From assembly GCA_030643545.1 (NCBI GenBank), contig DAOWLE010000025.1, forward strand, positions 1-26,909: a DNA stretch of 26,909 nucleotides, read 5' to 3'. Below are positions 4,558 to 22,269 of this stretch, piece after piece. The position numbers were made by a program, and so were the translations under genes. Positions within the stretch are counted from its first letter, which is position 1; each line of letters starts with the position of its first letter. The notes beneath the pieces are model-generated. The model was given only the letters and a program-made list of their open reading frames with translations, searched no databases and had not been told where the DNA came from. Source of the DNA: a bacterium. GTDB taxonomy: Bacteria; Patescibacteriota; Minisyncoccia; JAHIHE01; DAOWLE01.

Positions 4558-4953
4558 CTAAATCGTTTTCAATAATTCATCCATCTTTTTCACAAAAATT
4601 TCTGCTTTTTCAACAGCGTCTTGCGCGTCTTTTTTATTTATTTTAACTTCTTCTCTGTAATCAGCGTCTGTTCTTGCTTCTTGAACTACTGAAAGCATTT
4701 TTGAATAATTTTTATCAACTATTCCAGTTTTTACAAAATATTTCCTCCATAACAAGCCAATTCCTTGATGAGTTTTTGGCTCTTCTTTTTTAAAAATCAA
4801 AACCGCTTTTGCCGCATAAAACATAGCGTAATAAGCCCTTGAAACAGCGTCGCGATATTTTCCGGCTTTAAATAAAATTTGGGCAGATTCTAATTTATCT
4901 TTTGCCAATTTAATTCTCAATTTAGCAAATTCTTTTTTCTTTTTTGGTTCCAT
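4558..4953 (-). CDS. hepT: HEPN domain protein (putative toxin of HEPN/MNT pair)
   Basis: 131-aa all-helical ORF. Its start overlaps the end of the upstream nucleotidyltransferase gene by 37 nt. Family assignment rests on size, the YYAMFYAAKA helix and this genetic coupling. Confidence 0.6.
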   Translation of the reverse strand: MEPKKKKEFAKLRIKLAKDKLESAQILFKAGKYRDAVSRAYYAMFYAAKAVLIFKKEEPKTHQGIGLLWRKYFVKTGIVDKNYSKMLSVVQEARTDADYREEVKINKKDAQDAVEKAEIFVKKMDELLKTI

Positions 4954-5270
4954 AATTCTATTGCGTCTTTTTTAACATTTTCTAAAAAAGGAGTCCATTT
5001 ATTAAATTCTTTCTTTGGCAAAATCCGTGGAGAAATTTCCACCTCGTATTCAAGCATCGGATCAGTAGCCATTTCAATCATTTTTTTCCATTTTTCTCGG
5101 TTCGCTTTCTTGTTTGTAATTAATAAAATATCAAGGTCTGAATATTTATGATAATTTCCTCTTGCTTTAGAGCCAAAAAGCATCATCCTTTCTATAAGAG
5201 TCGGATAATTTTTTCTCAAATTATTTTTATAATCAGTTAAGGCTTTTTTTTCTTTGATATTAAGAGACAT
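4917..5270 (-). CDS. mntA: minimal nucleotidyltransferase (MNT, putative antitoxin)
   Basis: 117 aa with the GSKARGNYHKYSDLDILLI motif (GS...DxD, the pol-beta-like nucleotidyltransferase signature). Located upstream of and overlapping the HEPN gene. Confidence 0.75.
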   Translation of the reverse strand: MSLNIKEKKALTDYKNNLRKNYPTLIERMMLFGSKARGNYHKYSDLDILLITNKKANREKWKKMIEMATDPMLEYEVEISPRILPKKEFNKWTPFLENVKKDAIELWNQKRKKNLLN

Positions 5271-9825: not shown

Positions 9826-9880
9826 AGATTCCGAAACAAGTTCGGAATGACAGAAGAAAATTCGGAATGACAAATTAAAC
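9826..9880. repeat. palindromic GGAATGACAGAAGAA-type element, intergenic copy
   Basis: gattccgaaacaagttcggaatgacagaagaaaattcggaatgaca has palindromic arms attccgaa/ttcggaat and a duplicated ggaatgaca(gaagaa) unit. A near-identical architecture lies at 13635-13740 inside pilD. Confidence 0.7.
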
Positions 9881-9888
9881 CAAAAACA

Positions 9889-9931
9889 AAACAGATACCT
9901 AAAAAATCTCCCTTAAAGGCATCTGTTTTTA
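9889..9931. terminator. bidirectional rho-independent terminator candidate between convergent operons
   Basis: Hairpin acagatacc...ggcatctgt is flanked by an A-run upstream and a T-run downstream. It is positioned after the plus-strand SPFH operon and after the minus-strand gene ending at 9953. Additional hairpins at 9731-9770 (agcagg...cctgct followed by T8) and 9808-9826 (ccccc...ggggg) lie in the same zone. Confidence 0.5.
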
Positions 9932-9952: not shown

Positions 9953-10396
9953 TTACTGTGTAACAAAACCAATAATTAGTTGTACGATCGCGTAAGATAA
10001 AGCGGCAATCAATAATCCGAAAAGAGCAGAGACCAACGCCTTTTTTGCATTCTCTACCTTTGTTTCATCTCCTCCGGCAGTTAGATAAGTCAAACCTCCG
10101 TAAGCGAACATAAAGATGGACATCAGAACAATAAAACCGACCACCCATTTAACAATTTTTTCAACAATTGTTATAAAATCAGTTTCAGTGCCGGCGTACC
10201 CGACATCGCCCGGGTTTGGCATTGTTAAGCCACTTCCTGAGCTGCTTCCCGAGCCGCTTCCTGGTATGGCATTCCCATACTGATCATAAGTCACAGCCTG
10301 AATATCAGAAACTAACGATAAACCAAAAACTGGTCCGGCTAATAATCCAAACATAAAAACAACCATCATTATTTTTCCAATTTTTCCCATTTTCAT
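9953..10396 (-). CDS. small secreted protein with TrbC/VirB2-like (T4SS-pilin-like) C-terminal double-TM domain (P1)
   Basis: The track ORF starts at 10411. The GGAGGTG there is better read as the Shine-Dalgarno for the ATG at 10396 (MKMGKIGK...). The product has a signal peptide/TM, a Gly/Ser linker and a C-terminal hairpin of two hydrophobic helices. That C-terminus carries the motif AYGGLTYLTAGGDETKVENAKKALVSALFGLLIAALSYAIV. The two downstream paralogs share this motif. Confidence 0.6.
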   Translation of the reverse strand: MKMGKIGKIMMVVFMFGLLAGPVFGLSLVSDIQAVTYDQYGNAIPGSGSGSSSGSGLTMPNPGDVGYAGTETDFITIVEKIVKWVVGFIVLMSIFMFAYGGLTYLTAGGDETKVENAKKALVSALFGLLIAALSYAIVQLIIGFVTQ

Positions 10397-10517
10397 TTTA
10401 TTCACCTCCAATCGCGTAATTTATTCCCGATTTTGTCGGGACTATAAATTACAGCGTCCCGCCCTTTTGGCTTAAACCAAAAGAGCGGGGCAACATTTTT
10501 TAATTTAGAAAATAAAA

Positions 10518-11393
10518 TTATCCCGCGAGAATATCAACCAATGTATTCACAATCGCGTACGCCAGGACAACAACTAAAAGTCCTAAAATAGCGTAAGTCA
10601 ACGCTTTTTTTGCTGTATCAGCTTTCTGCTGATCCCCGGCGGAAATCATATACATTGCCCCGCTTATAATAATCATTAAAATCGCGATTAAAATTACAAT
10701 TTTTAAAAGCCACTTAATTAAATCCTCAAGAATTTCAGAAAGCGGTTTGCTCGAAAGATTTACTGTTGAACCGCTGCTTGTTGATGCCGGTTCTTGAACA
10801 GTTATTCCGCCATTGCCTGTTGGAAGTTGTGAGGTTGTAGGAGTTGTGGGAATTGTGGGAGTTGTGGGAATTGCATTTGCGTTTGTTGGAAGCTGTGGAA
10901 CAGTTGAAGCTATTTGACAAGTTCCTTCGTAGCAACAAACACCACTAGTACAATGCCTTGGACCGCTTGGTACAACACTAACACCCCCCGTACATTCACT
11001 TATATCAATGCATTCTTGACCACCTACAGATTCGCAATCAGTTAGAGGAGGAGTTGAAGACGTTTTACATTTTCCATTAATGCAACCGTTCGGACAATCA
11101 TCCACTTTAAAAAGAGATTGATTACAATCACAAGTCATCCCCCCCCATCCTTTTTTACAACCAAATCTAACTGATTTTTGATTATTTTCAACGCAAAAAG
11201 CATAATCGTAATTGTTTTCGTCGTCGCAATCATCACGGCTACCAGCGCACCAATCATTAGCTGTCATTCCATCATAAGTAATATTATTATCACTACAACG
11301 ATAATCTTTAGCAGAAACTTTCTCTCCCACTCCCAAAATTCCCAAACAACTCACCATTAAAATTAAAGTAAATAATAAAATTTTTTTGTTCAT
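10518..11393 (-). CDS. secreted Cys-rich protein with Pro/Thr linker and TrbC/VirB2-like C-terminal double-TM domain (P2)
   Basis: 291 aa with a Sec signal peptide (cleavage near VSA-KD). The ~140-aa domain has about 20 Cys (KDYRCSDNNITYDG...GCKKGWGGMTCDC...). A PT-rich linker (IPTTPTIPTTPTT) follows. The C-terminus carries GAMYMISAGDQQKADTAKKALTYAILGLLVVVLAYAIV. The N-terminal domain is paralogous to 11848..13083. Confidence 0.65.
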   Translation of the reverse strand: MNKKILLFTLILMVSCLGILGVGEKVSAKDYRCSDNNITYDGMTANDWCAGSRDDCDDENNYDYAFCVENNQKSVRFGCKKGWGGMTCDCNQSLFKVDDCPNGCINGKCKTSSTPPLTDCESVGGQECIDISECTGGVSVVPSGPRHCTSGVCCYEGTCQIASTVPQLPTNANAIPTTPTIPTTPTTSQLPTGNGGITVQEPASTSSGSTVNLSSKPLSEILEDLIKWLLKIVILIAILMIIISGAMYMISAGDQQKADTAKKALTYAILGLLVVVLAYAIVNTLVDILAG

Positions 11394-11400
11394 AAAACAA

Positions 11401-11439
11401 TGATTTATGATTTAAGATTTATGATTTACGAATGATTTA
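11401..11439. repeat. gatttaYgattta repeat between the P2 start and the 3' end of the four-helix-bundle gene
   Basis: tgatttatgatttaagatttatgatttacgaatgattta lies 7 nt upstream of the P2 ATG and overlaps the last codons (FVNHKS*) of the four-helix-bundle gene. An inverted copy lies at 11823-11845 on the other side of that gene. Confidence 0.7.
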
Positions 11440-11798
11440 GTTTTTTGAATTAATCCTTGTAAAAGTTGATGAGCTGAATTTATTTGATCTACTAATTTAT
11501 TAAAATTTTCTTCGTTAAGATAATTGACATCTTTAGCGATCAAAATTTGGTTTTTTAATTCAATCAAAGAACCTTGCGCAATATAATAAAACTGGACTTT
11601 TTCTTTATAAGTTTGTCTTCCAAATCCTTCAGCAATATTCGATGTGATAGAGACAACTGCTCTTCGCATTTGACTGACTAATCCGAATATTTCTTCTTTC
11701 GGAAATTCCTTTGTGATTTTATAAACTAAAATTACTATTTGATGTCCTTCTTGCCATGTTTTTAAATCTGTAAATGATTTTATTTTTTGATTATTCAT
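11412..11798 (-). CDS. four-helix-bundle protein (23S rRNA intervening-sequence protein family)
   Basis: 128 aa with DLKTWQEGHQIVILVYKITKEFPKEE...SQMRRAVVSITSNIAEGFGR..YKEKVQFYYIAQGSLIEL. These are the characteristic helices and the WQ..h/NIAEG motifs of the TIGR02436 / 23S_rRNA_IVP family. Confidence 0.75.
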   Translation of the reverse strand: MNNQKIKSFTDLKTWQEGHQIVILVYKITKEFPKEEIFGLVSQMRRAVVSITSNIAEGFGRQTYKEKVQFYYIAQGSLIELKNQILIAKDVNYLNEENFNKLVDQINSAHQLLQGLIQKTKSFVNHKS

Positions 11799-11822
11799 AA
11801 ATCGTCAATTCCTTAATCCTAT

Positions 11823-11845
11823 TCTTAAATCATAAATCGTAAATC
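11823..11845. repeat. inverted copy of the gatttaYgattta repeat, upstream of the four-helix-bundle gene
   Basis: tcttaaatcataaatcgtaaatc is the reverse complement of the repeat family found at 7042, 11401 and 22273. Together with 11401-11439 it brackets the four-helix-bundle gene as an inverted pair. Confidence 0.65.
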
Positions 11846-11847
11846 TT

Positions 11848-13083
11848 CTATTGAACTCCCAAAATATCTTTTAACTCCGTAATAATTGACCAAGATAAAA
11901 TAACAACTCCCAGTCCCACAACAGCGTAAAGAATTATATTTTTCGCTTTTTTAATTCTTTCCTCGTCGCCGGCAGAAGTAATATACATTAATCCGCCGAT
12001 AATTAAAAATAAAATTGCCAAAGAAACCACAATTCCCAAAATCCAATTGATAATTCCCATAATCAGCGCCTCAAAACTATCAGTGCTTAAAGGATTATTA
12101 AACCTAACCGCTCCGCCACTACCACCAGTATTGCTTCCACCCATACCACCTCCATTATTAACCGTTCCTCCGCCGCCCTCGTTACAATCAGAACCAGAAA
12201 CACAACGAATTTTTCCTTTGGATTTTCCATTACATGTTCCTTCGCAACTACTTGGTCCGCATATTTCAGCTTCTTGATTATCACATTCATCATCAGGATT
12301 ACAACCAATATTTATCCAATAACAAGGATTTGGAGTAGTTGTTGAAATAGGATTACATTGCCCTATACAACAAACTCTACTACCAGAACATCCTGATACG
12401 TCTAATTTTTCTTGCGAACATGTATTTTTATTTAAATCACAACAACTTCCTCCTGCGTCAGAACAAGTTTGAGTTTTTGGAACACAACTTTCTGGCTGAC
12501 AACAAGTACCGCTGGAACATTCTCTCGGACCTTCAAATACAACTTTTGAACAATTATTTGTTCTCAAATCACAACATATTTGACCACTTACAGATTCGCA
12601 CTTACAATATTTTTCCTTACAACAAAAACCGCTGGAACATTCTCTCGGACCACTTGCTACAAAACCGCTACAGTCTTTCTCATCACAACATACTTGACCG
12701 CTTACAGATTCGCAAGCAGTCGCCGGAGGAGTTGAAGACATTTTGCATTTTCCATTCACGCAACCGTTCGGACAATCATCCACTTTAATAAAACTACAAT
12801 CACAAGTCATCCCCCCCCATCCTTTTTTACAACCAAATTGAACTGATTTTTGATTATTTTCAACGCAAAAAGCATAATCGTAATTGTTTTCGTCGTCGCA
12901 ATCATCGCCCCAAATGCCTCCTGCGCACAAATCGTTAGCTGTCCTCCCATTATAAGTAATATTATTATTATCACAACGATAATCTTTAGCAAAAATTTCT
13001 CCCCCCACTCCCAAAATTCCGAAACAGCTCGCCATTAAAATTAAAGTAAATAAAAAGTTTTTGTTTTGAAATAAATTTTTCAT
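11848..13083 (-). CDS. secreted Cys-rich protein with duplicated Cys modules, Gly-rich segment and TrbC/VirB2-like C-terminal double-TM domain (P3)
   Basis: 411 aa. A signal peptide is followed by an N-terminal domain near-identical to P2. Nucleotide blocks around 12780-13020 and 11100-11340 are almost identical. Internal repeated modules are CESVSGQ(V/I)CCD...GPRECSSG(F/T)CC. The run GGGGTVNNGGGMGGSNTGGSGG is Gly-rich. The C-terminus carries GGLMYITSAGDEERIKKAKNIILYAVVGLGVVILSWSII. Confidence 0.65.
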   Translation of the reverse strand: MKNLFQNKNFLFTLILMASCFGILGVGGEIFAKDYRCDNNNITYNGRTANDLCAGGIWGDDCDDENNYDYAFCVENNQKSVQFGCKKGWGGMTCDCSFIKVDDCPNGCVNGKCKMSSTPPATACESVSGQVCCDEKDCSGFVASGPRECSSGFCCKEKYCKCESVSGQICCDLRTNNCSKVVFEGPRECSSGTCCQPESCVPKTQTCSDAGGSCCDLNKNTCSQEKLDVSGCSGSRVCCIGQCNPISTTTPNPCYWINIGCNPDDECDNQEAEICGPSSCEGTCNGKSKGKIRCVSGSDCNEGGGGTVNNGGGMGGSNTGGSGGAVRFNNPLSTDSFEALIMGIINWILGIVVSLAILFLIIGGLMYITSAGDEERIKKAKNIILYAVVGLGVVILSWSIITELKDILGVQ

Positions 13084-13123: not shown

Positions 13124-14026
13124 TTAAAAAATCAAACTAAAATAAATATCTTTTATAATTTCTCCCCAGAGCATCATTATAATCGTTGCCGCGACTAAGA
13201 AGGGTCCAAAAGGAATCTGGCTTTTGATAGATTTTATTTTTAAACCGATGAGAATTAAACCGATTGCCGCGCCCAAAATAAAAGCAAGGAATAGAGCAAA
13301 AAGAATATTTGGCCAACCGAGAATAAGTCCCATTAAAAAAGCCAATTTAACATCGCCAAATCCCATCCATTGACCTTTTGATATTAAAATTATTAGAAAG
13401 AAAAATCCAGCGGCGATGATAGCAGAGAAAATAGTATTTAGTATATCGTATATTGTATATTGTATAAAAATACCAGATACTAAATACCAGATACTAAATA
13501 CCAAAATAGCTGGAAAAATTATTTTGTCTGGAATAATGTAATGTTTTAAATCGTATACAAAAATTACTATTAGAGAACAAAGAATGAAAAGCAAAGAACA
13601 AAAAGCAATGAACAATGAACAGAAATTTAAAAGATTGTCATTCCCAACTTGATTGGGAATCCAGGCAGATAAGAAATGATTTGAATACTGGATTCCCGCC
13701 TGCGCGGGAATGACAGAAGAAGCGGGAATGACAGAAGAAAAAAAACCTAAAAAATTAAAAAATAAAACAAACAATATTCCTGTTCCTATTTCCACTAATG
13801 GATACTGAATTGAAATTGGTTTTCCGCAGTATCGGCATTTGCCAAAAGTGGAAATAAAACTTAAAATCGGAATCAAATCAAACCATTTCAAATTTTTTTT
13901 ACAATGCGGACAGCGCGAGCGAGAGAAAAAAAATTCTTCTTTTGTTTTCAAACGGCAGATAACAACATTTAAAAAACTGCCGACAATAAGCCCGAAGATA
14001 AAAATAAAGAAAGAAATAACAAACAT
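13124..14026 (-). CDS. pilD: prepilin peptidase (A24 family) carrying an in-frame repeat-derived insertion
   Basis: 300 aa. The N-terminal Zn-binding tetracysteine motif is CPHCKK...CRYCGK. The LNVVICRL and YPLVE motifs are present. The catalytic region VYDLKHYIIPD is followed by the downstream multi-TM A24 domain (GFGDVKL). About 45 extra residues (SSVIPASSVIPAQAGIQ...) lie between TM2 and the first catalytic Asp. These are encoded by the palindromic repeat at 13635-13740. Confidence 0.8.
   Translation of the reverse strand: MFVISFFIFIFGLIVGSFLNVVICRLKTKEEFFFSRSRCPHCKKNLKWFDLIPILSFISTFGKCRYCGKPISIQYPLVEIGTGILFVLFFNFLGFFSSVIPASSVIPAQAGIQYSNHFLSAWIPNQVGNDNLLNFCSLFIAFCSLLFILCSLIVIFVYDLKHYIIPDKIIFPAILVFSIWYLVSGIFIQYTIYDILNTIFSAIIAAGFFFLIILISKGQWMGFGDVKLAFLMGLILGWPNILFALFLAFILGAAIGLILIGLKIKSIKSQIPFGPFLVAATIIMMLWGEIIKDIYFSLIF
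13635..13740. repeat. palindromic GGAATGACAGAAGAA-type element inserted in-frame inside pilD
   Basis: ttgtcattcccaacttgattgggaatccagg...ctggattcccgcctgcgcgggaatgacagaagaagcgggaatgacagaagaa. Palindromic arms are attccca/tgggaat and ttcccgc/gcgggaa, with a duplicated gggaatgacagaagaa unit. The architecture matches the intergenic copy at 9826-9880. On the coding strand it translates as FFFSSVIPASSVIPAQAGIQ. Confidence 0.7.
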
Positions 14027-14027
14027 A

Positions 14028-14534
14028 TCAATAGTATCCTCCTTTTAAAACATAAGCTCCGCCAAATTCCAACCAACAGCCAAGATAATATCCGCAGCAT
14101 CCTTTTCCAGTGCAATCGCCGCCGATGTTTTCGTCGCAGTCCGGCTCATACCAATAATAATAAGCGGAATTATTAAAAGGATCTTTTGGAAGTATTCTAA
14201 TAATTTGATTGTCAGTAACTAATTTATCCCAAATTCCGCTGGTAACAGACCAATTATTTCCAGAGCAAGGACAAGTTCCGCATGTTCCCATACTGCTGTC
14301 GCATCCACCTTCTTCTGGATATTTTCCGGCTGCCGGATTGTCATAATAATAAATGTCTAATGCTTTTTGAATTTCTGCCAAATCAGTTTTCCGTACAGCG
14401 TCACGCGCTTTTTTCTGGGCATTGCCGACAGCAATAAAAACAACCATCGCCAGCATAGCAACAATTGTTATCACAAATAATACTTCTATAAGAGTAAAGC
14501 CAGTTTTTTTATTTGTATTTTTTTTGTTTTTCAT
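14028..14534 (-). CDS. prepilin-type (class III signal) Cys-rich pilin/pseudopilin
   Basis: 168 aa with KKTGFTLIEVLFVITIVAMLA. This is the G|FTLIE prepilin cleavage/methylation motif with Glu+5, then the hydrophobic alpha1 helix. The globular domain has 9 Cys and a Tyr-rich C-terminus. The gene abuts the pilD start by 1 nt. Confidence 0.8.
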   Translation of the reverse strand: MKNKKNTNKKTGFTLIEVLFVITIVAMLAMVVFIAVGNAQKKARDAVRKTDLAEIQKALDIYYYDNPAAGKYPEEGGCDSSMGTCGTCPCSGNNWSVTSGIWDKLVTDNQIIRILPKDPFNNSAYYYWYEPDCDENIGGDCTGKGCCGYYLGCWLEFGGAYVLKGGYY

Positions 14535-14565
14535 TTGGATTTTGAAATCTCCCCTTTTATTTAAT

Positions 14566-14595
14566 TAGCGGAGTAGGAATTTCCCCGCTCCGCTA
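14566..14595. other. GC-rich hairpin (tagcggag...ctccgcta) between the two pilin genes; possible terminator/attenuator
   Basis: 8-bp perfect stem with a 14-nt loop, downstream of pilin 14645..15079 on the minus strand. There is no clean U-run, so terminator function is uncertain. TATAAT-like sequences follow at about 14603-14612. Confidence 0.35.
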
Positions 14596-14644
14596 AATAA
14601 AAATATTATATAATCCTCGCGAGAATTTTAAATGAGAATTAAAT

Positions 14645-15079
14645 TTAATAACAAGCGCCATTAGAGCAAGTCCATGTTCCGGATTTAAGCGCTCCTGTCA
14701 GAGTATAACTAGTTACAGTTCCAGTATATTTGTAATTAGTAGCAGTTACTGGATGATCAGGCAAACGTTGGATATAAACCGTAGCGCCAGTAGAATCTTG
14801 TAATTTAAAACCGCTACAAATATTACCATTTGTAGCAGCACTGGCAATAAGACCATCAGCGCAAGTACCAACACCAGCTTCATATTCAGAATTATCCGCG
14901 TAATACATTTCCATTCCCAACATAATCTGGCTTAAATCTGATTTAACTTTCGCGTCGTTAGCTTTATTCCTCGCGTTATTTAAGGAAACCAAAACAATCG
15001 TCGCTAAAAGACCGATAATGGCGATAACAACCAAAAGCTCAATTAAAGTAAAACCTCGCTTATTTGTTTTTAACATCAT
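14645..15079 (-). CDS. pilA: type IV major pilin candidate (prepilin-type N-terminal domain)
   Basis: 144 aa with KRGFTLIELLVVIAIIGLLATIVLVSL, a canonical class III signal with G-1/F+1/E+5. Has a C-terminal disulfide loop (CSNGAC), small size and a Ser/Thr/Gly-rich domain typical of major pilins. It is the first gene after pilC. Confidence 0.8.
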   Translation of the reverse strand: MMLKTNKRGFTLIELLVVIAIIGLLATIVLVSLNNARNKANDAKVKSDLSQIMLGMEMYYADNSEYEAGVGTCADGLIASAATNGNICSGFKLQDSTGATVYIQRLPDHPVTATNYKYTGTVTSYTLTGALKSGTWTCSNGACY

Positions 15080-15107
15080 TTATTTCACCTCCCCTCGTTG
15101 AAAAATT

Positions 15108-15204
15108 AAAATCCAAAACAAAAAACAAAAAAATAAATTAAAAGTTAAAAGTTTTTGGTTTTTTGAATTTATTTTTGGCTTTTTTGTTTTTTGTTTTGGA
15201 TTTT
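15108..15204. repeat. perfect 26-bp A/T-rich inverted repeat with 46-nt spacer between the pilC stop and the pilin start
   Basis: aaaatccaaaacaaaaaacaaaaaaa at 15108-15133 is the exact reverse complement of tttttttgttttttgttttggatttt at 15180-15204. The repeat abuts the pilC stop codon at 15205. Confidence 0.8.
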
Positions 15205-16410
15205 CTACATTCCTCCCGCAATACCGTAAATCGGTAGAAGAATCGCCGAAACCATAACTCCCACTCCTATTCCCATCATAACAATTAAAACCGGTTCAAT
15301 CAATGTGGATAAATTATCAACAACATTATTTACTTCTCTTACGTAAAATCGCGCGATATTATCTAAGATTGAATCCAATTTTCCCGAGCGTTCACCGATA
15401 TTGATCATCTGAACAACTATCAGCGGAATTTCCGGACTCTCTCCTAAAACTTTGGCTATAGAGGTTCCGGACTTTACTTTTTCCGCTGTTTTAAAAATTA
15501 AATCTTTAAAAACTTCATTGCCGATAACCGATCCGGTGATTTGCAAAGAGCGGACAATCGGAACCCCGCCTTTGATTAAAGTGCTTAAATTTTCCGAAAA
15601 ACGGACTAAAGCAATTTTTCTAAAAAGTTCTCCCATTACCGGTAGTTTTAGTTTCATTTTATCCCAATTCATTTTTCCTTCCGGAGTATCAACATACCGT
15701 TTAGTTCCAATTCCCACTGTTATTCCAAAAACAATTAGAATCCATCCATAATATCTAAGAAAATGACTTGAAGCAATTAACATCTTAGTTGTGATTGGCA
15801 ATTCTTGTCCTGACTCTTCTATAATAGCGGTTAACTGAGGAATAACATAAACCATAACAATTATTCCAACGGCAAAAAACGCAAGCAAAATAAAAGCAGG
15901 GTAATACATTGCCCCTTTAATTTTATTTTCTAAATCATATTGTTTCTCTACGTGCTCAGCCAGATAAAGCAAAGATTCCTGAAGATTTCCGGAAACTTCT
16001 CCGGCTTTAATTAAATTTACATAAAATTCAGAAAATACTTTAGGATGTTTTGATAGAGAGTAAGAAAGCGATCGCCCTCCTTCTATATCATTGGCTATCT
16101 CAAAAATTTTTTCTCTAAAAAACGCATTGCTTGTCTGTTTATGCAATGTTTTCAGCGCTTCAAGCAAGGTAATTTTCGCTTCAATCAAAGTAGCCAATTG
16201 CCTTGAAAAAATCACCAAGTCCTTTGCCGGAACTTTTTGGAGAAACTTAATATTACGGAACAAAGCCGAAACTTCCACTATTGAAACAATAGAAATAACA
16301 ACTAATTTATGTGATTGAAGCGTTTCTATCGCCGCGGCTTCGTTTGAAGCTTCAACTGTGCCGCTTTGCATTTCGCCTTTTTCATTTTTTGCCTGATATT
16401 TAAATTTCAT
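15205..16410 (-). CDS. pilC: type IV pilus assembly platform protein PilC (GspF family)
   Basis: 401-aa polytopic membrane protein with two T2SSF-like cytoplasmic domains (…FSRQLATLIEAKITLLEAL…; …LSTLIKGGVPIVRSLQI…) and C-terminal GIGVGVMVSAILLPIYGIAGGM. It overlaps pilT by 4 nt. Confidence 0.85.
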   Translation of the reverse strand: MKFKYQAKNEKGEMQSGTVEASNEAAAIETLQSHKLVVISIVSIVEVSALFRNIKFLQKVPAKDLVIFSRQLATLIEAKITLLEALKTLHKQTSNAFFREKIFEIANDIEGGRSLSYSLSKHPKVFSEFYVNLIKAGEVSGNLQESLLYLAEHVEKQYDLENKIKGAMYYPAFILLAFFAVGIIVMVYVIPQLTAIIEESGQELPITTKMLIASSHFLRYYGWILIVFGITVGIGTKRYVDTPEGKMNWDKMKLKLPVMGELFRKIALVRFSENLSTLIKGGVPIVRSLQITGSVIGNEVFKDLIFKTAEKVKSGTSIAKVLGESPEIPLIVVQMINIGERSGKLDSILDNIARFYVREVNNVVDNLSTLIEPVLIVMMGIGVGVMVSAILLPIYGIAGGM

Positions 16411-17489
16411 TGTTTATTTTTCAAAAGCATTTTTAAATCCTTAGGATTAAGTGAGTAAAGCTCCGCATTTTGGCGAGATATCTCGCCTTTTTCAACAAGA
16501 TTTGCTAAAGATTTATTAAGAGGAAGCATTCCTTCTTCGGAACTTGTTTCAATAACCAAATCCAACTGGTGAGTTTTATTTTCCCTGATTAAATTTCTTA
16601 TTGCCGCGTTAGCAAGCAGAATTTCCGTTGCCGGAATTCTTCCACCGTCAACGCGGGGAACAAGCCGCTGAGAAACAATTCCCTGAAGGCTGCTGGCTAA
16701 TTGCGCTCTAATTTGAGATTGTTGATTAGCCGGAAAACTATCAATAATTCTGTCTATTGTCTGAGCGGCATTATTAGTATGAAGAGTGGCAAAAACCAAA
16801 TGACCTGTCTCCGCGGCAGTCACCGCTGTTGATATTGTTTCCGGATCTCTCATTTCTCCAACCATAATCACATTAGCGTCTTCCCTAAAAACAGATCTCA
16901 AAGCAACATGAAAAGAACGGGAATCGTGATAAATTTCCCTTTGAGAAATAATGCATCTGTCTTGAGTAAAAACATATTCAATCGGATCTTCAATAGTAAT
17001 TATACAATCATTTCGGTTATGATTAATTTCATCTATTAAAGCGGCTAAAGATGTTGATTTTCCATGGCCGGTTGGTCCGACCATCAGAACAAAACCTTGT
17101 TTAAGCTTGGTAAATTTGTGAATAATAGGCGGCAAATTTAATTCTTCAACAGTTCTAATTTCCGAAGGAATTAATCTTAAAGAAGCTCCGACATATCCTT
17201 TTTGGCGGAAAATATTAACTCTAAATCTTGCTCTTTCTTCAAAATTATAAGAAAGGTCAATTTCTTTGTCTTTTAAAAACTGGTCTTTTTGTTTTTCATC
17301 AAGCAGAGCAAAGCATAATTCCTCGGCGTGTCCCGGAGTTAAAATTTCTTTGTTTGTTAAAGGAATTAATTTGCCATCAATTCTTAAAATAGGATATCGC
17401 GCTATTGAAATATGAAGATCTGAAGCGCCTTCTTTTGCTGTCATTTCCAAAAGTTCGTTTAATTCTTTTTTAATTTCTAATGAATCCAT
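16407..17489 (-). CDS. pilT: type IV pilus retraction ATPase PilT
   Basis: 360 aa with a Walker A box GPTGHGKST, the Asp box ITIEDPIEY, Walker B MVGEMRD, the His box HLVFATLHTNNA and the PilT-type AIRNLIRE motif. Confidence 0.9.
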   Translation of the reverse strand: MDSLEIKKELNELLEMTAKEGASDLHISIARYPILRIDGKLIPLTNKEILTPGHAEELCFALLDEKQKDQFLKDKEIDLSYNFEERARFRVNIFRQKGYVGASLRLIPSEIRTVEELNLPPIIHKFTKLKQGFVLMVGPTGHGKSTSLAALIDEINHNRNDCIITIEDPIEYVFTQDRCIISQREIYHDSRSFHVALRSVFREDANVIMVGEMRDPETISTAVTAAETGHLVFATLHTNNAAQTIDRIIDSFPANQQSQIRAQLASSLQGIVSQRLVPRVDGGRIPATEILLANAAIRNLIRENKTHQLDLVIETSSEEGMLPLNKSLANLVEKGEISRQNAELYSLNPKDLKMLLKNKQ

Positions 17490-17495
17490 ATAATA

Positions 17496-17612
17496 AATTT
17501 AAATATTAAATATCAAAATGTAAAATGACAATGTAAAATTAAAAATTAAAAATTAAAAATTTTTCAATTTTGATTTGTTATTTTGATTTTTGATTTTTGC
17601 ATTTTAATTTTT
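17496..17612. repeat. imperfect palindromic intergenic element, copy B
   Basis: aaatatcaaaatgtaaaatgacaatgtaaaatt...aattttgatttgttattttgatttttgattttt. Fills the whole spacer between the pilT start and the stop of the upstream small ORF. Confidence 0.7.
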
Positions 17613-17936
17613 TTAGTACGGCAAAAATGGATTTGGTCTTCCAGTTTGGCCCGTTTTTACCGGCAAATCTCCGTGGCTGCGCAGATCTTTGAACTGCGTA
17701 CTTTCTAAAACTTTTAAATCCAATTCCGTGGAAACCAATCCTTCGCTTGGCAAAGACTCGTTCTTTCCATCTAAATAAGGAAAATTTTCATTGTTTGTTT
17801 TAGAAATTGTTTCAGCTGGTTGATTAGATGTTTTCGGCCCTGAAAAATTCCAAATAAGAACTATTGCCATTATTAAAAGGCAAGTTACTAAAATAATCGC
17901 TAAAATTTTTTGTTTTTTTTCTTCTTGAGAAGCCAT
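17613..17936 (-). CDS. small membrane protein (hypothetical), embedded in pilus operon
   Basis: 107 aa with an N-terminal TM (ILAIILVTCLLIMAIVLIW), then a Pro/Ser/Thr-containing soluble tail. It is flanked on both sides by copies of the palindromic element. No homolog recognised. Confidence 0.5.
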   Translation of the reverse strand: MASQEEKKQKILAIILVTCLLIMAIVLIWNFSGPKTSNQPAETISKTNNENFPYLDGKNESLPSEGLVSTELDLKVLESTQFKDLRSHGDLPVKTGQTGRPNPFLPY

Positions 17937-17939
17937 AAT

Positions 17940-18140
17940 ACAAATTTAAAATTTAAATATCAAAATGTAAAATGACAGTGTAAAATTCAAAATTGACTAA
18001 TGTTAAAATGGTTTTTAAGTTTACCCTGTTAAATAAAATCTTTGATTTTCTTTCACCAAAGGCGAAAGACTTAACAGGGTAAATTCCATTTTAACATTTT
18101 GATTTGTCATTTTGCATTTTGATATTTGCATTTTGATTTT
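17940..18140. repeat. imperfect palindromic intergenic element, copy C, with nested hairpin insertion
   Basis: Same outer cores as copies A, B and D, plus the ttgactaatgttaaaatggttttt block shared exactly with copy A. It contains the nested perfect palindromes tgttaaaatgg/ccattttaaca (18001-18011 with 18086-18096) and tttaccctgttaa/ttaacagggtaaa (18020-18032 with 18071-18083). Confidence 0.7.
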
Positions 18141-18141
18141 T

Positions 18142-19884
18142 CTAGTCTTTCGTCGCTTTAATCACTTCATTGATTGTCGTCGTTCCTTTCAAAACTTTTA
18201 ATACTCCATCTTGAAGCATTGACAGCATTTTCTGCCGCCGCGCTTCTTCTTTAATCGCGCTTTCAGTTAAATTTTCAATAACAACTTTTTCCAAACCAGG
18301 AGTCATCGAAAAAACTTCAAAAATAGCCATTCTGCCTTTCACTCCTTGGTTATCGCAATACTTGCATCCTTTGCCCTGATAAATTTTATAGGGCTCTTTT
18401 ATTGACAAACTGTCCTTTTGTTCTTGAGAAAGTTTATTTACTTCCCGTTCAATTAAATTTTTTACGCCCCTGTCCAGTTCAATTTCCTTGCGGCAGTACT
18501 TGCAAATTCTTCTAACTAATCTTTGAGCAATAATTAAATTAAGGGAAGAAGTAATTAAGAAAGGATCAATTCCCATGTCAATTAATCGCGGAATAACGCC
18601 AACCGCGTCATTGGTATGAAGAGTTGAAAGAACAATATGCCCGGTCAGCGCGGCATGAACAGCCAACTCAGCTGTTTCTTTATCCCTGATTTCCCCGACC
18701 ATAATAATATCCGGATCCTGCCGTAAAATTGACCTTAAACCAGAAGCGAAAGAATAACCTATTTCCGGCTTTACCTGGCTTTGATTTACTCCTTCAATAT
18801 CATATTCAATCGGATCTTCCAAAGTAATAATATTCACTCCTTCTTGATTAAGAATTGATAAAAGAGCGTAAAGAGTTGTTGATTTCCCAGAACCAGTCGG
18901 ACCGGTTATCAAAATCATTCCGTAAGGTTTTTTAATGCTTTCAATGGTGAGCTTATGGGCATTGCCTTCTAATCCTAATTCATGCAAGCTTCTTAAACCA
19001 ATTGATTTATCAAGAATTCTTAAAGCCGCTTTTTCGCCATTTAAAGTCGGTAGAGTAGAAACCCTAAAATCTAATCCTTTTCCGTCAATATCCATATGAA
19101 ATCTTCCATCTTGCGGCTTTCGGCTTTCGTCAATTTTGAGATTAGTAAGAATTTTTATTCGCGATATGACGCCTGAACAAACTTGCTTGGGCAAAGTTAA
19201 ACTTGAATGAAGCACTCCGTCAATCCTAAAACGAACTCTTAAATCAGTTTCTGTCGGTTCAATATGAATATCGCTTGCTCCGCCTTCATAAGCATGCCTT
19301 ATAATAATGTCAACTATTTTGCTTACCGGCGTTTTCTCAACTAATCGTTCAACTTTTTCCACCTTTTCTTTTTTTGAAACTGGTTTTTTGCTTTTTAAAT
19401 CTTTTTTTATTCCTTTCAGCGCTTCGCTGACTTCTAAATCCAAAACTCTGTATTGCCTTAATGTTTCTTCAAAAGAAGAAGATGAAGTGATAAAAATTCT
19501 TGTTTTAAGATTATGCCTTAAAGCAATAAATTTAAGAGCTTCTAATGATCTTATGTCTTTTGGATCAAGCATAGCAATATCTATTTGTTTGCCATGTTTA
19601 AAAAAAGGAACAAAACGATAATGCACAGCGGCCTCTTCAGGAATTTCTTTTAAAACATTGGAGGGAATTTTTTCTCCTCTTAAATCAACATAAGGTATTT
19701 TTAAAAATTCTGCTTTTGTCTGGATATAATCTTCTTCTTCAATAATTTTATTTCTAAAAACAAACTCATCAAGCGTTTGTCCGGCTTCGTTTGCTTTTTG
19801 TTTATATGATTCAATTTTTTGAGATTCAATTAAACCTTTTTCTAAAAGAAGATCAATAATTTGTTTGGACTTTTGAACAACCAT
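18142..19884 (-). CDS. pilB: type IV pilus assembly ATPase PilB (GspE family)
   Basis: 580 aa with an N-terminal GSPII_E_N-like domain. Has Walker A GPTGSGKSTT, the Asp box ITLEDPIEY, Walker B MVGEIRD, the His box HIVLSTLHTNDA and the tetracysteine Zn motif CKYC...CKYC. Confidence 0.9.
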   Translation of the reverse strand: MVVQKSKQIIDLLLEKGLIESQKIESYKQKANEAGQTLDEFVFRNKIIEEEDYIQTKAEFLKIPYVDLRGEKIPSNVLKEIPEEAAVHYRFVPFFKHGKQIDIAMLDPKDIRSLEALKFIALRHNLKTRIFITSSSSFEETLRQYRVLDLEVSEALKGIKKDLKSKKPVSKKEKVEKVERLVEKTPVSKIVDIIIRHAYEGGASDIHIEPTETDLRVRFRIDGVLHSSLTLPKQVCSGVISRIKILTNLKIDESRKPQDGRFHMDIDGKGLDFRVSTLPTLNGEKAALRILDKSIGLRSLHELGLEGNAHKLTIESIKKPYGMILITGPTGSGKSTTLYALLSILNQEGVNIITLEDPIEYDIEGVNQSQVKPEIGYSFASGLRSILRQDPDIIMVGEIRDKETAELAVHAALTGHIVLSTLHTNDAVGVIPRLIDMGIDPFLITSSLNLIIAQRLVRRICKYCRKEIELDRGVKNLIEREVNKLSQEQKDSLSIKEPYKIYQGKGCKYCDNQGVKGRMAIFEVFSMTPGLEKVVIENLTESAIKEEARRQKMLSMLQDGVLKVLKGTTTINEVIKATKD

Positions 19885-19885
19885 T

Positions 19886-20494
19886 TTATTGATAATAGAC
19901 TTTTAACCTAATACTGTAAGAAAAATTATCAGACACTTCTTCCTCTTCAGAGGAACCGGAAGAGCTGGAAAAATTAATGGATGTTATATCCATAATTCTA
20001 ATATTGTTTTCTAAACTTCTAAGATAATTTTTAAAATTTTCATAACTGCCGGTTAAATTTATATCAATAGAGACAGATCTAGTTTGTTCAATAATATTTT
20101 GCTGGTCTGCTGTTTCTAAAGAAGACGCTGCATTATTTTCAGAAGTTGTTTTGTTCTGCGCGCTCTGCTGTATTTTGCTAAAATTTGATGATTCAAATAT
20201 CATTCCATTTTCCGAAGCTAAAGCTTCAAGCTGAACTAAAACATTAGGAATTTCCGCTTTATTCGGCAAAGCGTAAAAAACTTTATTTACCCGGCCTTCT
20301 ATATCTTCATATTGATTAACTAATTTCTCAATATCAAAAACTAATTTCTGTTTTTTTTCAAGAGTATTTTCTTTTGTTTCTATTTTCTGCGCAAGATTTT
20401 TTATTTCACCATAGGTTGGCTGAACAAACCATAATAATGCCGCAATAATGCCAATCATCGCAATGGGCAAAATAAGAATTTCTACAAATTTCAT
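19886..20494 (-). CDS. pilO: type IV pilus biogenesis protein PilO-like
   Basis: 202-aa bitopic protein (N-terminal TM, coiled coil, periplasmic domain). It sits directly downstream of pilN and 1 nt upstream of pilB, in canonical pilMNO order. Confidence 0.65.
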   Translation of the reverse strand: MKFVEILILPIAMIGIIAALLWFVQPTYGEIKNLAQKIETKENTLEKKQKLVFDIEKLVNQYEDIEGRVNKVFYALPNKAEIPNVLVQLEALASENGMIFESSNFSKIQQSAQNKTTSENNAASSLETADQQNIIEQTRSVSIDINLTGSYENFKNYLRSLENNIRIMDITSINFSSSSGSSEEEEVSDNFSYSIRLKVYYQ

Positions 20495-20535
20495 AATATT
20501 TTTGTTAAAAATTTAAAAGTTATATTTCTCTGTCA

Positions 20536-21078
20536 TTATTTTTTATATTCAAACATTTCCTGTTTCAAGAAAAGAGAAAGATCAAAACCGATTCCGCCAT
20601 CAACACCTATGCTCGCTGAAGAAAAATCAACTTTACTAATTTCTTCAGCTTCTCTAAAAGCAACTACTTGTTTAGCTAAACTGCTAAAACTAATTGCTTT
20701 TCCCTTAAGCTGAATTTTTTTGCTGGGAACATCCCCGTCAAAACTTTCAAAGCTTACGGTCGGAACAGTATTTTTTTCAATCAGGTCAAAAACATTTGAA
20801 TAATAAATATGATCATTTAACATTCTTTTAAGATTATTTAAATGTTTTTGAAAACTGATTACTTCAGTATCTAATTCCTGACTAATTTTTTCATTTATCT
20901 GATCAATTTCGTTATCTAAATCAGAAACTTTATTGGACAAAGTTTTTTCGTAGAAAAAAAGTCCAGCGCAAATAATCGCTGTGATAATAATTAAAACAAT
21001 CGGAATAATAACCAATTTTTTTGAAGTTTTTTCTTTTTTTTGCCTAAAACCTTCAGGCACTAAATTAATTGTAGACAC
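20536..21078 (-). CDS. pilN: type IV pilus biogenesis protein PilN-like
   Basis: 180-aa bitopic protein with the conserved N-terminal INL(V/L)P motif (MSTINLVPEGF), then a TM, a coiled coil and a periplasmic domain. It apparently starts with GTG at 21078. Confidence 0.7.
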   Translation of the reverse strand: MSTINLVPEGFRQKKEKTSKKLVIIPIVLIIITAIICAGLFFYEKTLSNKVSDLDNEIDQINEKISQELDTEVISFQKHLNNLKRMLNDHIYYSNVFDLIEKNTVPTVSFESFDGDVPSKKIQLKGKAISFSSLAKQVVAFREAEEISKVDFSSASIGVDGGIGFDLSLFLKQEMFEYKK

Positions 21079-21081
21079 GAT

Positions 21082-21186
21082 AGTAAATTTAAAAATTAAA
21101 TATCAAAATGTAAAATGACAATGTAAAATTTAAAATTTTTTAATTTTGATTTGTCATTTTGATTTTTGATTTTTAATCTTTGATTT
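21082..21186. repeat. imperfect palindromic intergenic element, copy D
   Basis: aaatatcaaaatgtaaaatgacaatgtaaaattt...aattttgatttgtcattttgatttttgattttt. Fills the pilM-pilN spacer. Confidence 0.7.
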
Positions 21187-22269
21187 TTATACTGTTCCTC
21201 TTGTTGCCGAGCCGACAGATGAAGAAAAAAACGGAGATAATTCTTTTAATGCCGGGTTTAAAATTTCCGGATAAATCACATTAAGCCAAGGATTAGCTAA
21301 AGATACCGGAATATCAAAATTTTCAATAAAATATTCCATTAATCCGGGAAGATTTGCTGAACCGCCGCTCATTATTATCATTTTTGGCTTCTTATTAGAA
21401 CGTTGATAATATAATTCAAAAACTCTTTGTATTTCTTCAATGATTGAATTGATAAGCGGTAACATTAATTCTGAAATTTGTTTTTCAGCATCGTCCGCTT
21501 TTATTCCAATGTCTTTTTTAAGAACTTCAGCTCGTTTAAAATTAAGATTAAGTCCGTCAGCAATTACTTTAGTTAATTCATTGCCGCTCATTTCAATAGT
21601 TCTGCTCATCACCACAAACCCTCCTTCAACAACAATAATATTAGACGAACTTATTCCAATATCAACAATTACCATTGGTTCTTTTTCTTTGCCTACTAAC
21701 GCTCTTGACAAAGAAAAGGATTCTGACTCTAAAGCGACTAATTCAACTTTGGCTATCTCGGCAATCTTGGCATATTTTTGGATTAATTCTTTGGAGACAG
21801 CAACTAAAATTATTTCCAATAAATGTGAATCAGAATTTTCTTTTAATGAAAAACTTCCTGAATCTTTTTTGAGAATTTCCCAGCTTAAAATTACTTCTTC
21901 AATCGGAACAGGAATATATTTTTTCGCCTCAATCGGAATAGCTCTTTCAGCTTCTTCATCGGACATTTTTGGCATTTTTATTAAAACAGAAAAGGTTGAA
22001 GAAGCTGGAGTGGAAATAATCGCTCTTCTGGTCGTTGCTTTGCATTCTTTTAAAACCTTTTTCAAAAGCATTGCTATTGTTTTGTCAGAATAATTTATTT
22101 TTCTATTTTCAACTTCAGTTTCTTGGATAAAATCTTTAACTTTTAAATATCCGTAAGTTTCTAATTTTAATCTTTTACTCTCTTGAGTTAATTGTACCAC
22201 CTTTATGTTTTTTGCGCTAATATCAATTCCTAAACATCTATTCGATTTTTTAAAAAAAGAAAAATTCAT
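21187..22269 (-). CDS. pilM: type IV pilus assembly protein PilM (actin-like ATPase fold)
   Basis: 360 aa with LGIDISAKNIKVVQL and IVDIGISSSNIIVVEGG, the actin/FtsA-like phosphate motifs typical of PilM. It is the first gene of the pilMNO-B set. Confidence 0.85.
   Translation of the reverse strand: MNFSFFKKSNRCLGIDISAKNIKVVQLTQESKRLKLETYGYLKVKDFIQETEVENRKINYSDKTIAMLLKKVLKECKATTRRAIISTPASSTFSVLIKMPKMSDEEAERAIPIEAKKYIPVPIEEVILSWEILKKDSGSFSLKENSDSHLLEIILVAVSKELIQKYAKIAEIAKVELVALESESFSLSRALVGKEKEPMVIVDIGISSSNIIVVEGGFVVMSRTIEMSGNELTKVIADGLNLNFKRAEVLKKDIGIKADDAEKQISELMLPLINSIIEEIQRVFELYYQRSNKKPKMIIMSGGSANLPGLMEYFIENFDIPVSLANPWLNVIYPEILNPALKELSPFFSSSVGSATRGTV

Follow-up and report, generated by a model that had tools for sequence, protein, structure and literature searches.

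The stretch of DNA considered here (the window, 26,909 nucleotides of contig DAOWLE010000025.1, assembly GCA_030643545.1, from a member of the Patescibacteriota) is AT-rich, with a GC content of about 30-42%, and carries on its minus strand three genes, P3, P2 and P1, whose predicted secreted products share a C-terminal two-helix module of the VirB2-like pilin type. On that strand the order of genes is pilD, P3, a gene of the PF05635 family, P2 and P1, with a gap of 40 nt between pilD and P3. An initial annotation of the window had pointed out three same-strand genes in this region with a common C-terminal double-helix module, which is confirmed by the open reading frames (ORFs) and the alignment, and had missed the intervening PF05635 gene. 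The ORF of P1 spans 9953-10411; its likeliest start is the ATG at 10396, located 7 nt past a GGAGGTG ribosome-binding site, which gives a protein of 147 amino acids (aa). The locus belongs to a kind already in the literature, the VirB2-like pilin arrays of Patescibacteria, to which it adds subunits that bear large N-terminal heads, a cassette-like exchange of these heads and an unusual placement after the last gene of a type IV pilus (T4P) operon. The features of the array are the following.

11848-13083, minus strand: P3, a 411-aa VirB2-like pilin with a large Cys-rich head (43 Cys; PF18895 match 2.2e-13)
12169-12984 (about aa 34-305), minus strand: head of P3, with an N-terminal 'KDYRC...NGKCK' domain, three Cys modules of about 40 aa and further Cys-rich segments
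11851-12099 (aa 329-411, envelope of the hidden Markov model, HMM), minus strand: pilin module of P3, a two-helix hairpin after a Gly-rich linker
11412-11798, minus strand: PF05635 gene (23S_rRNA_IVP, a 128-aa four-helix bundle, Avd-like; Pfam 9.1e-39), between P3 and P2
10518-11393, minus strand: P2, a 291-aa VirB2-like pilin with a Cys-rich head (18 Cys) and a Thr/Pro-rich linker (PF18895 match 2.5e-12)
10991-11387, minus strand: 5' segment of P2 (signal peptide and first head domain), with its counterpart in P3 at 12669-13065
10521-10766 (aa 210-291, HMM envelope), minus strand: pilin module of P2
9953-10396, minus strand: P1, a 147-aa minimal VirB2-like pilin composed of signal peptide, Gly/Ser linker and hairpin (0 Cys; PF18895 match 9.9e-9)
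9878-9929, minus strand: terminator-like hairpin and U-run 3' of P1 (RNA fold -20.1 kcal/mol, z = -5.4), then UUUUGUUUUUGG

The common C-terminal module of P1, P2 and P3 comprises about 80 aa and consists of an amphipathic start, hydrophobic helix 1, the motif Y-x-x-(S/A)-(A/G)-G-D, a charged loop in which A-K is invariant, and hydrophobic helix 2. The motif given in the initial annotation, which has AKK in the loop and SYAIV at the end of the second helix, holds as written for P1 and P2, but P3 reads AKN for AKK and SWSII for SYAIV. All three proteins exceed the gathering cut-off of 26.6 bits of PF18895 (T4SS_pilin, in which T4SS stands for type IV secretion system) with scores of 35.6 (P1), 47.1 (P2) and 50.5 bits (P3). 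P2 also exceeds that of PF04956 (TrbC/VirB2), with 31.5 bits against a cut-off of 27.9 (P3 scores 11.7 bits), and P3 exceeds the curated cut-off of 40 of NF045849 with 43.6 bits, of which P1 (30.6 bits) and P2 (33.8 bits) fall short. Since the PF18895 E-values range from 1e-8 to 2e-13 and the triad is kept in five other contigs, the similarity is far from chance, and on the strength of these profile matches the module belongs to the T4SS_pilin family enriched in the Candidate Phyla Radiation (CPR), in agreement with the family and the TrbC/VirB2 topology suggested in the initial annotation. Hydropathy and alignment place a signal peptide followed by two hydrophobic helices with a short charged loop in each of the three proteins; the flanks of the hairpin are acidic and its loop is Lys-rich. 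In the AlphaFold (AF2) model of P1, made with 17 homologs, a disordered linker joins a signal-peptide helix to a confident hairpin of two helices (H71-106 and H111-146), whose pLDDT is about 90. A hairpin-only mature size holds for P1 (147 aa; 17 homologs of 100-147 aa), which is indeed the minimal pilin-sized version that it had been taken for, and fails for P2 (291 aa) and P3 (411 aa).

The number of Cys residues is 0 in P1, 18 in P2 and 43 in P3. A regular-expression search for a module of about 40 aa with the pattern C-x5-6-C(C)-D-x4-6-C-x8-12-C-x3-5-CC-x3-4-C found one copy in P2 and three in P3, and variants of it are present in other heads. The head of P3 retrieves only four database proteins, all of which carry PF18895.

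The P3-P2-P1 triad is present in six contigs, namely the window and five related contigs that were compared with it (L001, a contig of 193 kb of which 20 kb was scanned, L082, L083, L084 and L085). The orthologs of P3, drawn from database homologs and the related contigs, are P0001, P0004, P0062 and the P3 of L085. Across strains the last 85 aa of the proteins are 85-95% identical in P2 and P3 and 80-92% identical in P1. The pilin module of P3 is 92-95% identical, and that of P2 is 85-92% identical over five strain variants with at least eight different head architectures; those found on the P2-type hairpin include Cys-poor beta-rich heads and an unrelated domain of 340 aa. The heads, in contrast, share 18-51% identity across strains (26-51% for the P3 head) and range in length from 76 to 322 aa. 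At the DNA level, the hairpins of the window and L001 have an identity of 0.87-0.91 (0.75-0.86 at the third codon position), compared to 0.91-0.92 (0.79-0.85) for the housekeeping genes encoding PilB, PilC, PilT, CorA and S2. Between the same two contigs the T4P pilins are 63% and 81% identical, which is below the VirB2-like hairpins, and the signal peptides are 53-83% identical. The hairpins are as conserved as housekeeping genes and are inherited vertically under strong purifying selection, whereas the heads are replaced or shuffled in a cassette-like manner on conserved hairpins between strains and paralogs. This pattern strengthens the earlier proposal of an anchor that displays Cys-rich ectodomains.

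The three hairpins are mutually only 29-40% identical, and the whole of P2 or P3 shares 28-30% identity with P1. P2 and P3 nevertheless have in common a 5' part of about 400 nt, a duplication with direct repeats (D1-D3) of 82-98% nucleotide identity. Over the first ~125 codons, P3 and P2 are 80% identical in amino acids and 88% in nucleotides, with an identity of 0.92 at the third codon position, while their hairpins are only 39% identical. As the P3 and P2 heads of the window resemble each other more than the background between strains would give, the head segment was recently copied between anciently diverged carriers. Silent head copies were found neither in the 27 kb of the window nor in the 20 kb of L001. 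Close species representatives of the lineage are lacking, with a best PilB match of 52% identity, and a pattern scan of reference genomes with the module alignment gave 139 pattern matches and no confirmed relative. A scan of metagenomes for further strain variants returned distant relatives only (28-55% identity), which serve here as an independent sample of genomic contexts and not for strain comparison.

The spacers of the array have also received insertions. The PF05635 gene lies in the P3|P2 spacer of the window within an element (11409-11845) that is bracketed by inverted repeats of 25 nt (11409-11433 and 11821-11845) with 92% complementarity. It is absent from the syntenic contigs L001, L082 and L085, and a different, poorly alignable PF05635 copy is located in the P2|P1 spacer of L083 (2335-2771) and L084 (1749-2174). 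The inverted repeats that bracket the PF05635 copies measure 25-38 nt, and the copies look like independent insertions of small elements similar to intervening sequences (IVS), composed of an ORF and a stem. The PF05635 element is not part of the pilin system. Another spacer insertion is seen in L083 (727-1344), where a gene of 205 aa with a weak match to Y1_Tnp (IS200/IS605-type transposase) is situated between the P3 and P2 orthologs.

The architecture of P2 and P3 recurs well beyond this lineage. A search with the module profile returns 85,530 representative proteins at E<=1e-3, and 21 metagenomic loci contain arrays of 2-8 pilin genes. The layout of a signal peptide, a Cys-containing head, a Thr/Pro- or Gly-rich linker and a C-terminal hairpin is found in many unrelated arrays, with members in L090 (333 aa, 16 Cys), L091 (442 aa, 28 Cys), L101, L093, L089, L098, L095 and L104. 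The array of L093 is located 1.4 kb from a VirB4-like ATPase (P-loop_TraG, AAA_10, TraC_F_IV), and L102 and L103 also contain VirB4-like ORFs; no virB4 was found near the pilins of L086 and L087. In L088 (3500-4792) and L095 (4468-5514) an array member has a hairpin near its N-terminus and, fused to it on the C-terminal side, an SLT lytic transglycosylase domain (Pfam 1e-10 and 1e-14). Judged by their domain matches these are VirB2-like/VirB1-like fusions, of which no mention was found in the T4SS survey of Patescibacteria (PMC12102498). A Gracilibacteria-labelled locus (L086, 11157-15635) encodes a protein of 1,492 aa that is rich in PKD repeats and matches T4SS_pilin weakly; it adjoins two triple-hairpin pilin genes as well as further giant PKD and SpaA-like proteins. 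These shared layouts and fusions suggest that the hairpin is widely used as a carrier of extracellular domains, sometimes near a VirB4-type ATPase. A separate feature of the metagenomic arrays is a gene for a solute-binding protein of ~460-490 aa (SBP_bac_1/SBP_bac_8) immediately upstream of the array and on the same strand in 13 of the 21 loci (L088-L091, L093, L095, L098-L101, L104, L105 and L108), a pairing that is conserved.

Arrays of VirB2-like pilins have been described in a survey that ran PF04956 and PF18895 against 3,035 Patescibacteria genomes. VirB4 was found in 2,417 assemblies (~80%), VirB2-like pilins accompany VirB4 in 1,948 assemblies, and in 1,135 of these 1,948 the pilin is near virB4 (Quinonero-Coronel et al. 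2025, PMC12102498). The same study reports 441 'VirB2 arrays' of 2-11 genes, either in tandem or split by one non-pilin gene, whose members have an average identity of 25% and a maximum of 54%. In Ca. Southlakia epibionticum ML1, a predicted pilin series inside a T4SS cluster is essential (Wang et al. 2023, PMC10633639). The locus of the window shares with the published arrays the PF18895/PF04956 hairpins with signal peptides, the tandem paralogs, the single non-pilin interruption and the chromosomal location in a CPR bacterium, along with a low identity among the members (29-40% for the hairpins), the head segment that is 80% identical between P2 and P3 being an exception. Unlike them, it is located at the 3' end of a T4P operon and not near virB4, and two of its members bear Cys-rich heads of 140-300 aa that are exchanged on conserved hairpins. 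The related assembly GCA_030673465.1 is absent from the supplementary table of VirB2 hits in PMC12102498, a table that gives no protein lengths. The initial annotation had considered the combination possibly undescribed. Such arrays are in fact published (PMC12102498, PMC10633639) and heads occur in many other arrays, but no description of large-headed pilins or of head variation was found in the papers on patescibacterial VirB2 arrays or in the wider searchable literature.

Among the better-known relatives, the VirB2 pilin of the Ti plasmid, TrbC of RP4, TraA of F and the archaeal CedA1/TedC proteins resemble P1-P3 in having a leader peptide, two hydrophobic helices and a short charged loop. 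Canonical conjugative pilins are about 70-120 aa in length when mature, have no ectodomains and are encoded in T4SS operons; cyclisation or acetylation occurs in some of them. The array described here differs in that two of its three members are large-headed and it has no T4SS neighbours, and its products are putative pilus subunits. In pili of the F family the two termini are on the outside, with the loop towards the lumen or the cytoplasm, which means that an N-terminal head would point outward in such an arrangement, compatible with its display on a filament. Mbov_0395/MMCAP2_0565 of the integrative and conjugative elements (ICEs) of Mycoplasma (NF045849, pilin-like conjugal transfer protein) likewise combine a VirB2-like hairpin with a wall-less or monoderm T4SS context, whereas the NF045849 model covers 80 positions, consisting of the hairpin only, and the proteins are ICE-borne. 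A different kind of likeness is offered by the Vsp/Vlp lipoproteins of Mycoplasma and by pilE/pilS of Neisseria, in which the ends are conserved and the middle parts are replaced by recombination. P2 and P3 likewise have a conserved export signal and a conserved part for anchoring or assembly on either side of a replaced region, and tandem paralogs serve as donors, as seen in the P3-to-P2 head copy. They are unlike these systems in the type of anchor and in having no silent cassettes in 27 kb plus 20 kb, and the variation occurs between strains, with no sign of high-frequency switching within a clone.

The array follows the T4P operon on the same strand, and the neighbouring features are the following.

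13124-22269, minus strand: type IV pilus operon with a complete gene set, namely pilM, a pilN-like gene, pilO, pilB, a 107-aa ORF, pilT, pilC, two prepilins and pilD (Pfam)
22291-26802, minus strand: a 1,503-aa secreted protein with two LamG, two DUF2341 and PKD domains, directly upstream of pilM

The LamG/DUF2341/PKD protein, which we take to resemble MshQ-type pilus-associated proteins, may be a T4P-linked adhesin. The position of P1-P3 directly downstream of pilD and of two class III pilins, as noted in the initial annotation, is borne out by the 40-nt gap and by the N_methyl matches: the class III prepilin motif (G|F-T-L-I-E, PF07963) is present in both upstream pilins (5.3e-10 and 6.8e-7) and absent from P1-P3. 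No terminator-like site was detected between pilD and P3, which together with the 40-nt gap and the hairpin and U-run after P1 makes co-transcription plausible, and the array is probably co-transcribed with the T4P operon in this lineage. PilD precedes the array in the same order in the window, L001 and L082, and does not do so in L085. This linkage does not extend further. A PilB probe yielded 80 T4P loci with flanks of 10 kb, about 55 of which come from Patescibacteria, and none of these ~55 other patescibacterial loci contains the T4SS-pilin module; the only matches of the module HMM, at E<=1e-27, are in the window and L001, the strongest noise match has E = 0.09, and iterative searching added nothing. 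Conversely, no pil genes were found in 23 other T4SS-pilin loci (200 kb in total). The adjacency of T4P operon and array is a lineage-specific arrangement and no general association, so that the idea of a T4P-T4SS hybrid system put forward in the initial annotation has to be corrected to that of a local arrangement. Two observations concern the T4P genes themselves. The second type IV prepilin (14028-14534) has a Cys-rich C-terminal half with 9 Cys, and the PilD of the window (13124-14026) is 20 aa longer than its ortholog in L001, the excess lying in a loop (~aa 97-134) that reads SSVIPASSVIPAQAGIQ and looks like a translated repeat element.

The interpretation towards which we lean, with modest confidence, is that P1-P3 form a Patescibacteria-type VirB2-like pilin array in which conserved hairpins display variable adhesin-like heads, likely in connection with a T4SS. 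It is proposed that P1-P3 are exported via a Sec-type signal peptide and insert in the cytoplasmic membrane as N-out/C-out hairpins with the Lys-rich loop in the cytoplasm. P1 would be the bare subunit, and P2 and P3 would carry disulfide-rich heads N-terminal to the hairpin, which would face outward on flexible Thr/Pro-rich or Gly-rich linkers; the disulfides could plausibly be made by an MdbA-like/VKOR system, which is enriched in CPR. The three hairpins may be regarded as old, distinct paralogs that contact one another or an assembly machine, most plausibly a T4SS encoded elsewhere. The near-constancy of each paralog's hairpin implies specific protein contacts, and the presence of VirB4 in ~80% of Patescibacteria provides a prior expectation of a T4SS elsewhere in the genome. 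The heads, in turn, would be exchanged by recombination between paralogs and strains. Their turnover is the signature expected of ligand binding or host recognition, suggesting a role in the binding of variable partners such as host surfaces, and P2 and P3 are probably variable host-recognition proteins. Head-bearing subunits would perhaps be minor components among P1 subunits in a filament, and the attachment of the array to the T4P operon would lead to both surface systems being made together.

Cultivated Patescibacteria live attached to host bacteria, and both the T4SS and its pilin series are essential in the single species that has been tested; the combination of a conserved hairpin with a swappable head is a concrete, testable candidate for the determinant of host specificity. 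A broader proposal, which is distinctly tentative, is that the VirB2-like hairpin is a general modular carrier in Patescibacteria. Strongly conserved and paralog-specific, it would assemble into a T4SS-dependent filament or complex and present exchangeable ectodomains, be they Cys-rich binding heads, arrays of PKD domains or lytic transglycosylases; the heads would decide to which host cells an epibiont attaches or which it breaches. In this lineage the carrier would be wired into the T4P operon, leading to a joint deployment of both attachment systems. If this were true, conjugative-type pilins would here be shown for the first time to have adhesin domains on their subunits, and repertoires of heads would predict host range.

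A number of results weigh against the display of heads on a T4SS-linked pilus. No VirB4, VirB6 or VirD4 genes were found by Pfam in the 27-kb window, as the initial annotation had it, or in 20 kb of L001, and a phmmer search with the VirB4-like protein of L093 found no VirB4-like ORF in either. A 2025 review states that a pilus has not yet been demonstrated for any patescibacterial pilin (PMC12857230). A Foldseek comparison of the hairpin with the PDB ranks 8dfu (Aeropyrum pernix conjugation pilin) second, with the highest probability (0.84) but an E-value of 1.4. Nothing was found at E<=1e-3, ATP-synthase c subunits and coiled coils score alongside 8dfu, and the module profile has no significant match among PDB sequences. 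A helical hairpin is too simple to discriminate, so that a VirB2 hairpin is inseparable from other helical hairpins by fold search, and the homology to VirB2-type pilins rests on the HMMs because structure comparison is uninformative. Many of the top matches to the module profile are single proteins with 3-17 tandem hairpins (P0063-P0212, also P0014, P0015 and P0017; for example P0076 with 17 modules in 1,775 aa and P0063 with eight in 820 aa), which look like polytopic membrane proteins and not like pilus monomers. P2, P3 and their orthologs retain '...L-M-(A/V)-S-C-(F/L)-G-I-L-G...' in the signal peptide, a loose fit to a lipobox, and lipidation, if true, would tether the N-terminus as well; further hydrophobic residues and a site of the A-x-A type (VSA|K, IFA|K) come after this segment, and head-bearing pilins of other lineages have plain A-x-A sites. 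As for the heads, no homologs were found outside the lineage, nor a Pfam domain or a PDB relative, and the AF2 model of P2, with a mean pLDDT of 52, is of too low a quality for a fold search. With heads that have neither detectable homologs nor a confident structure, a binding function is pure inference. Finally, a head of 150-300 aa on every subunit may be sterically hard to accommodate in a helical pilus.

Several of these points are also accounted for by a possible, if rather doubtful, alternative in which the hairpin is reduced to a two-helix membrane anchor, P2 and P3 are tethered adhesins or receptors that form no polymer and need no T4SS, and P1 is a small membrane protein with a role of its own. 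Large heads are sterically awkward in a pilus, T4SS genes are missing from the vicinity in the window and L001, many arrays are away from virB4 (as follows from the 1,135 of 1,948 assemblies with the two in proximity, PMC12102498, and from L086 and L087), and the proteins with 3-17 hairpins, the PKD-repeat giant and the SLT fusions fit a generic membrane module. Plain anchors, however, usually need hydrophobicity alone, whereas here each of the three hairpin paralogs is kept at 80-95% identity; their conservation matches that of PilB, PilC and S2 and exceeds that of the signal peptides (53-83%), which argues for specific contacts. A bare P1 is, moreover, always retained beside the head-bearing members, and the pilin series of S. 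epibionticum is essential and located inside a T4SS cluster (PMC10633639). The proximity of the T4P operon raises the question of whether P1-P3 might instead work with the adjacent T4P machine as anchored adhesins or assembly factors, their VirB2-like fold being incidental. This would be in keeping with the common strand, the 40-nt gap after pilD, the terminator after P1 but not before P3, and the repetition of the arrangement in L001 and L082. It is nonetheless improbable given that P1-P3 have no class III (G|FTLIE) prepilin signal of the kind seen in the two true pilins, the module occurs in none of about 55 other T4P loci, pil genes occur in 0 of 23 pilin-array loci, and the array of L085 is not preceded by pilD.

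Two further explanations concern the heads rather than the hairpins. Small, repeated, disulfide-rich modules of ~40 aa, exposed Thr/Pro- or Gly-rich linkers and a fast turnover would also be expected if the heads were knottin-like toxins or signals that are cut at the linker, with the hairpin as a carrier for export and processing. Release of this kind is very improbable: the locus shows neither a protease gene nor a cleavage motif, the linkers are stalk-like, other arrays carry Cys-poor beta-rich heads or an unrelated 340-aa domain at the head position, and the heads have no similarity to known toxin or bacteriocin families. Programmed diversification, with the Avd-like gene as the mark of a diversity-generating retroelement or with silent cassettes that drive pilS-like variation, would make sense of the hypervariable heads and of the weak Avd/bAvd matches of the intervening gene, yet its probability is close to negligible. 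The PF05635 match of this gene is much the stronger (9e-39), three syntenic loci lack the gene, and two others have it in a different spacer; the window has no reverse transcriptase and no template/variable repeat (TR/VR) pair, the repeat shared by P2 and P3 spanning whole 5' parts of the genes, and neither the window nor L001 has silent head copies. For the window, the retroelement and silent-cassette idea is effectively refuted by the lack of a reverse transcriptase, of a TR/VR pair and of extra head copies.

The remaining genes of the window encode an SPFH/Band_7 protein, CorA, rpsB, tsf, an MNT/HEPN pair and two tRNAs, the latter being the only Rfam matches. Just downstream of P1 (9841-9871) are two exact copies of GTCATTCCGAA, for which the window has four matches in total compared to 0.57 expected. 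The MNT nucleotidyltransferase and HEPN genes (4558-5270) form a toxin-antitoxin-like pair between rpsB and a gene for a Kre9_KNH-like secreted protein; the pair is absent at the matching place in L001, where tsf directly follows rpsB.

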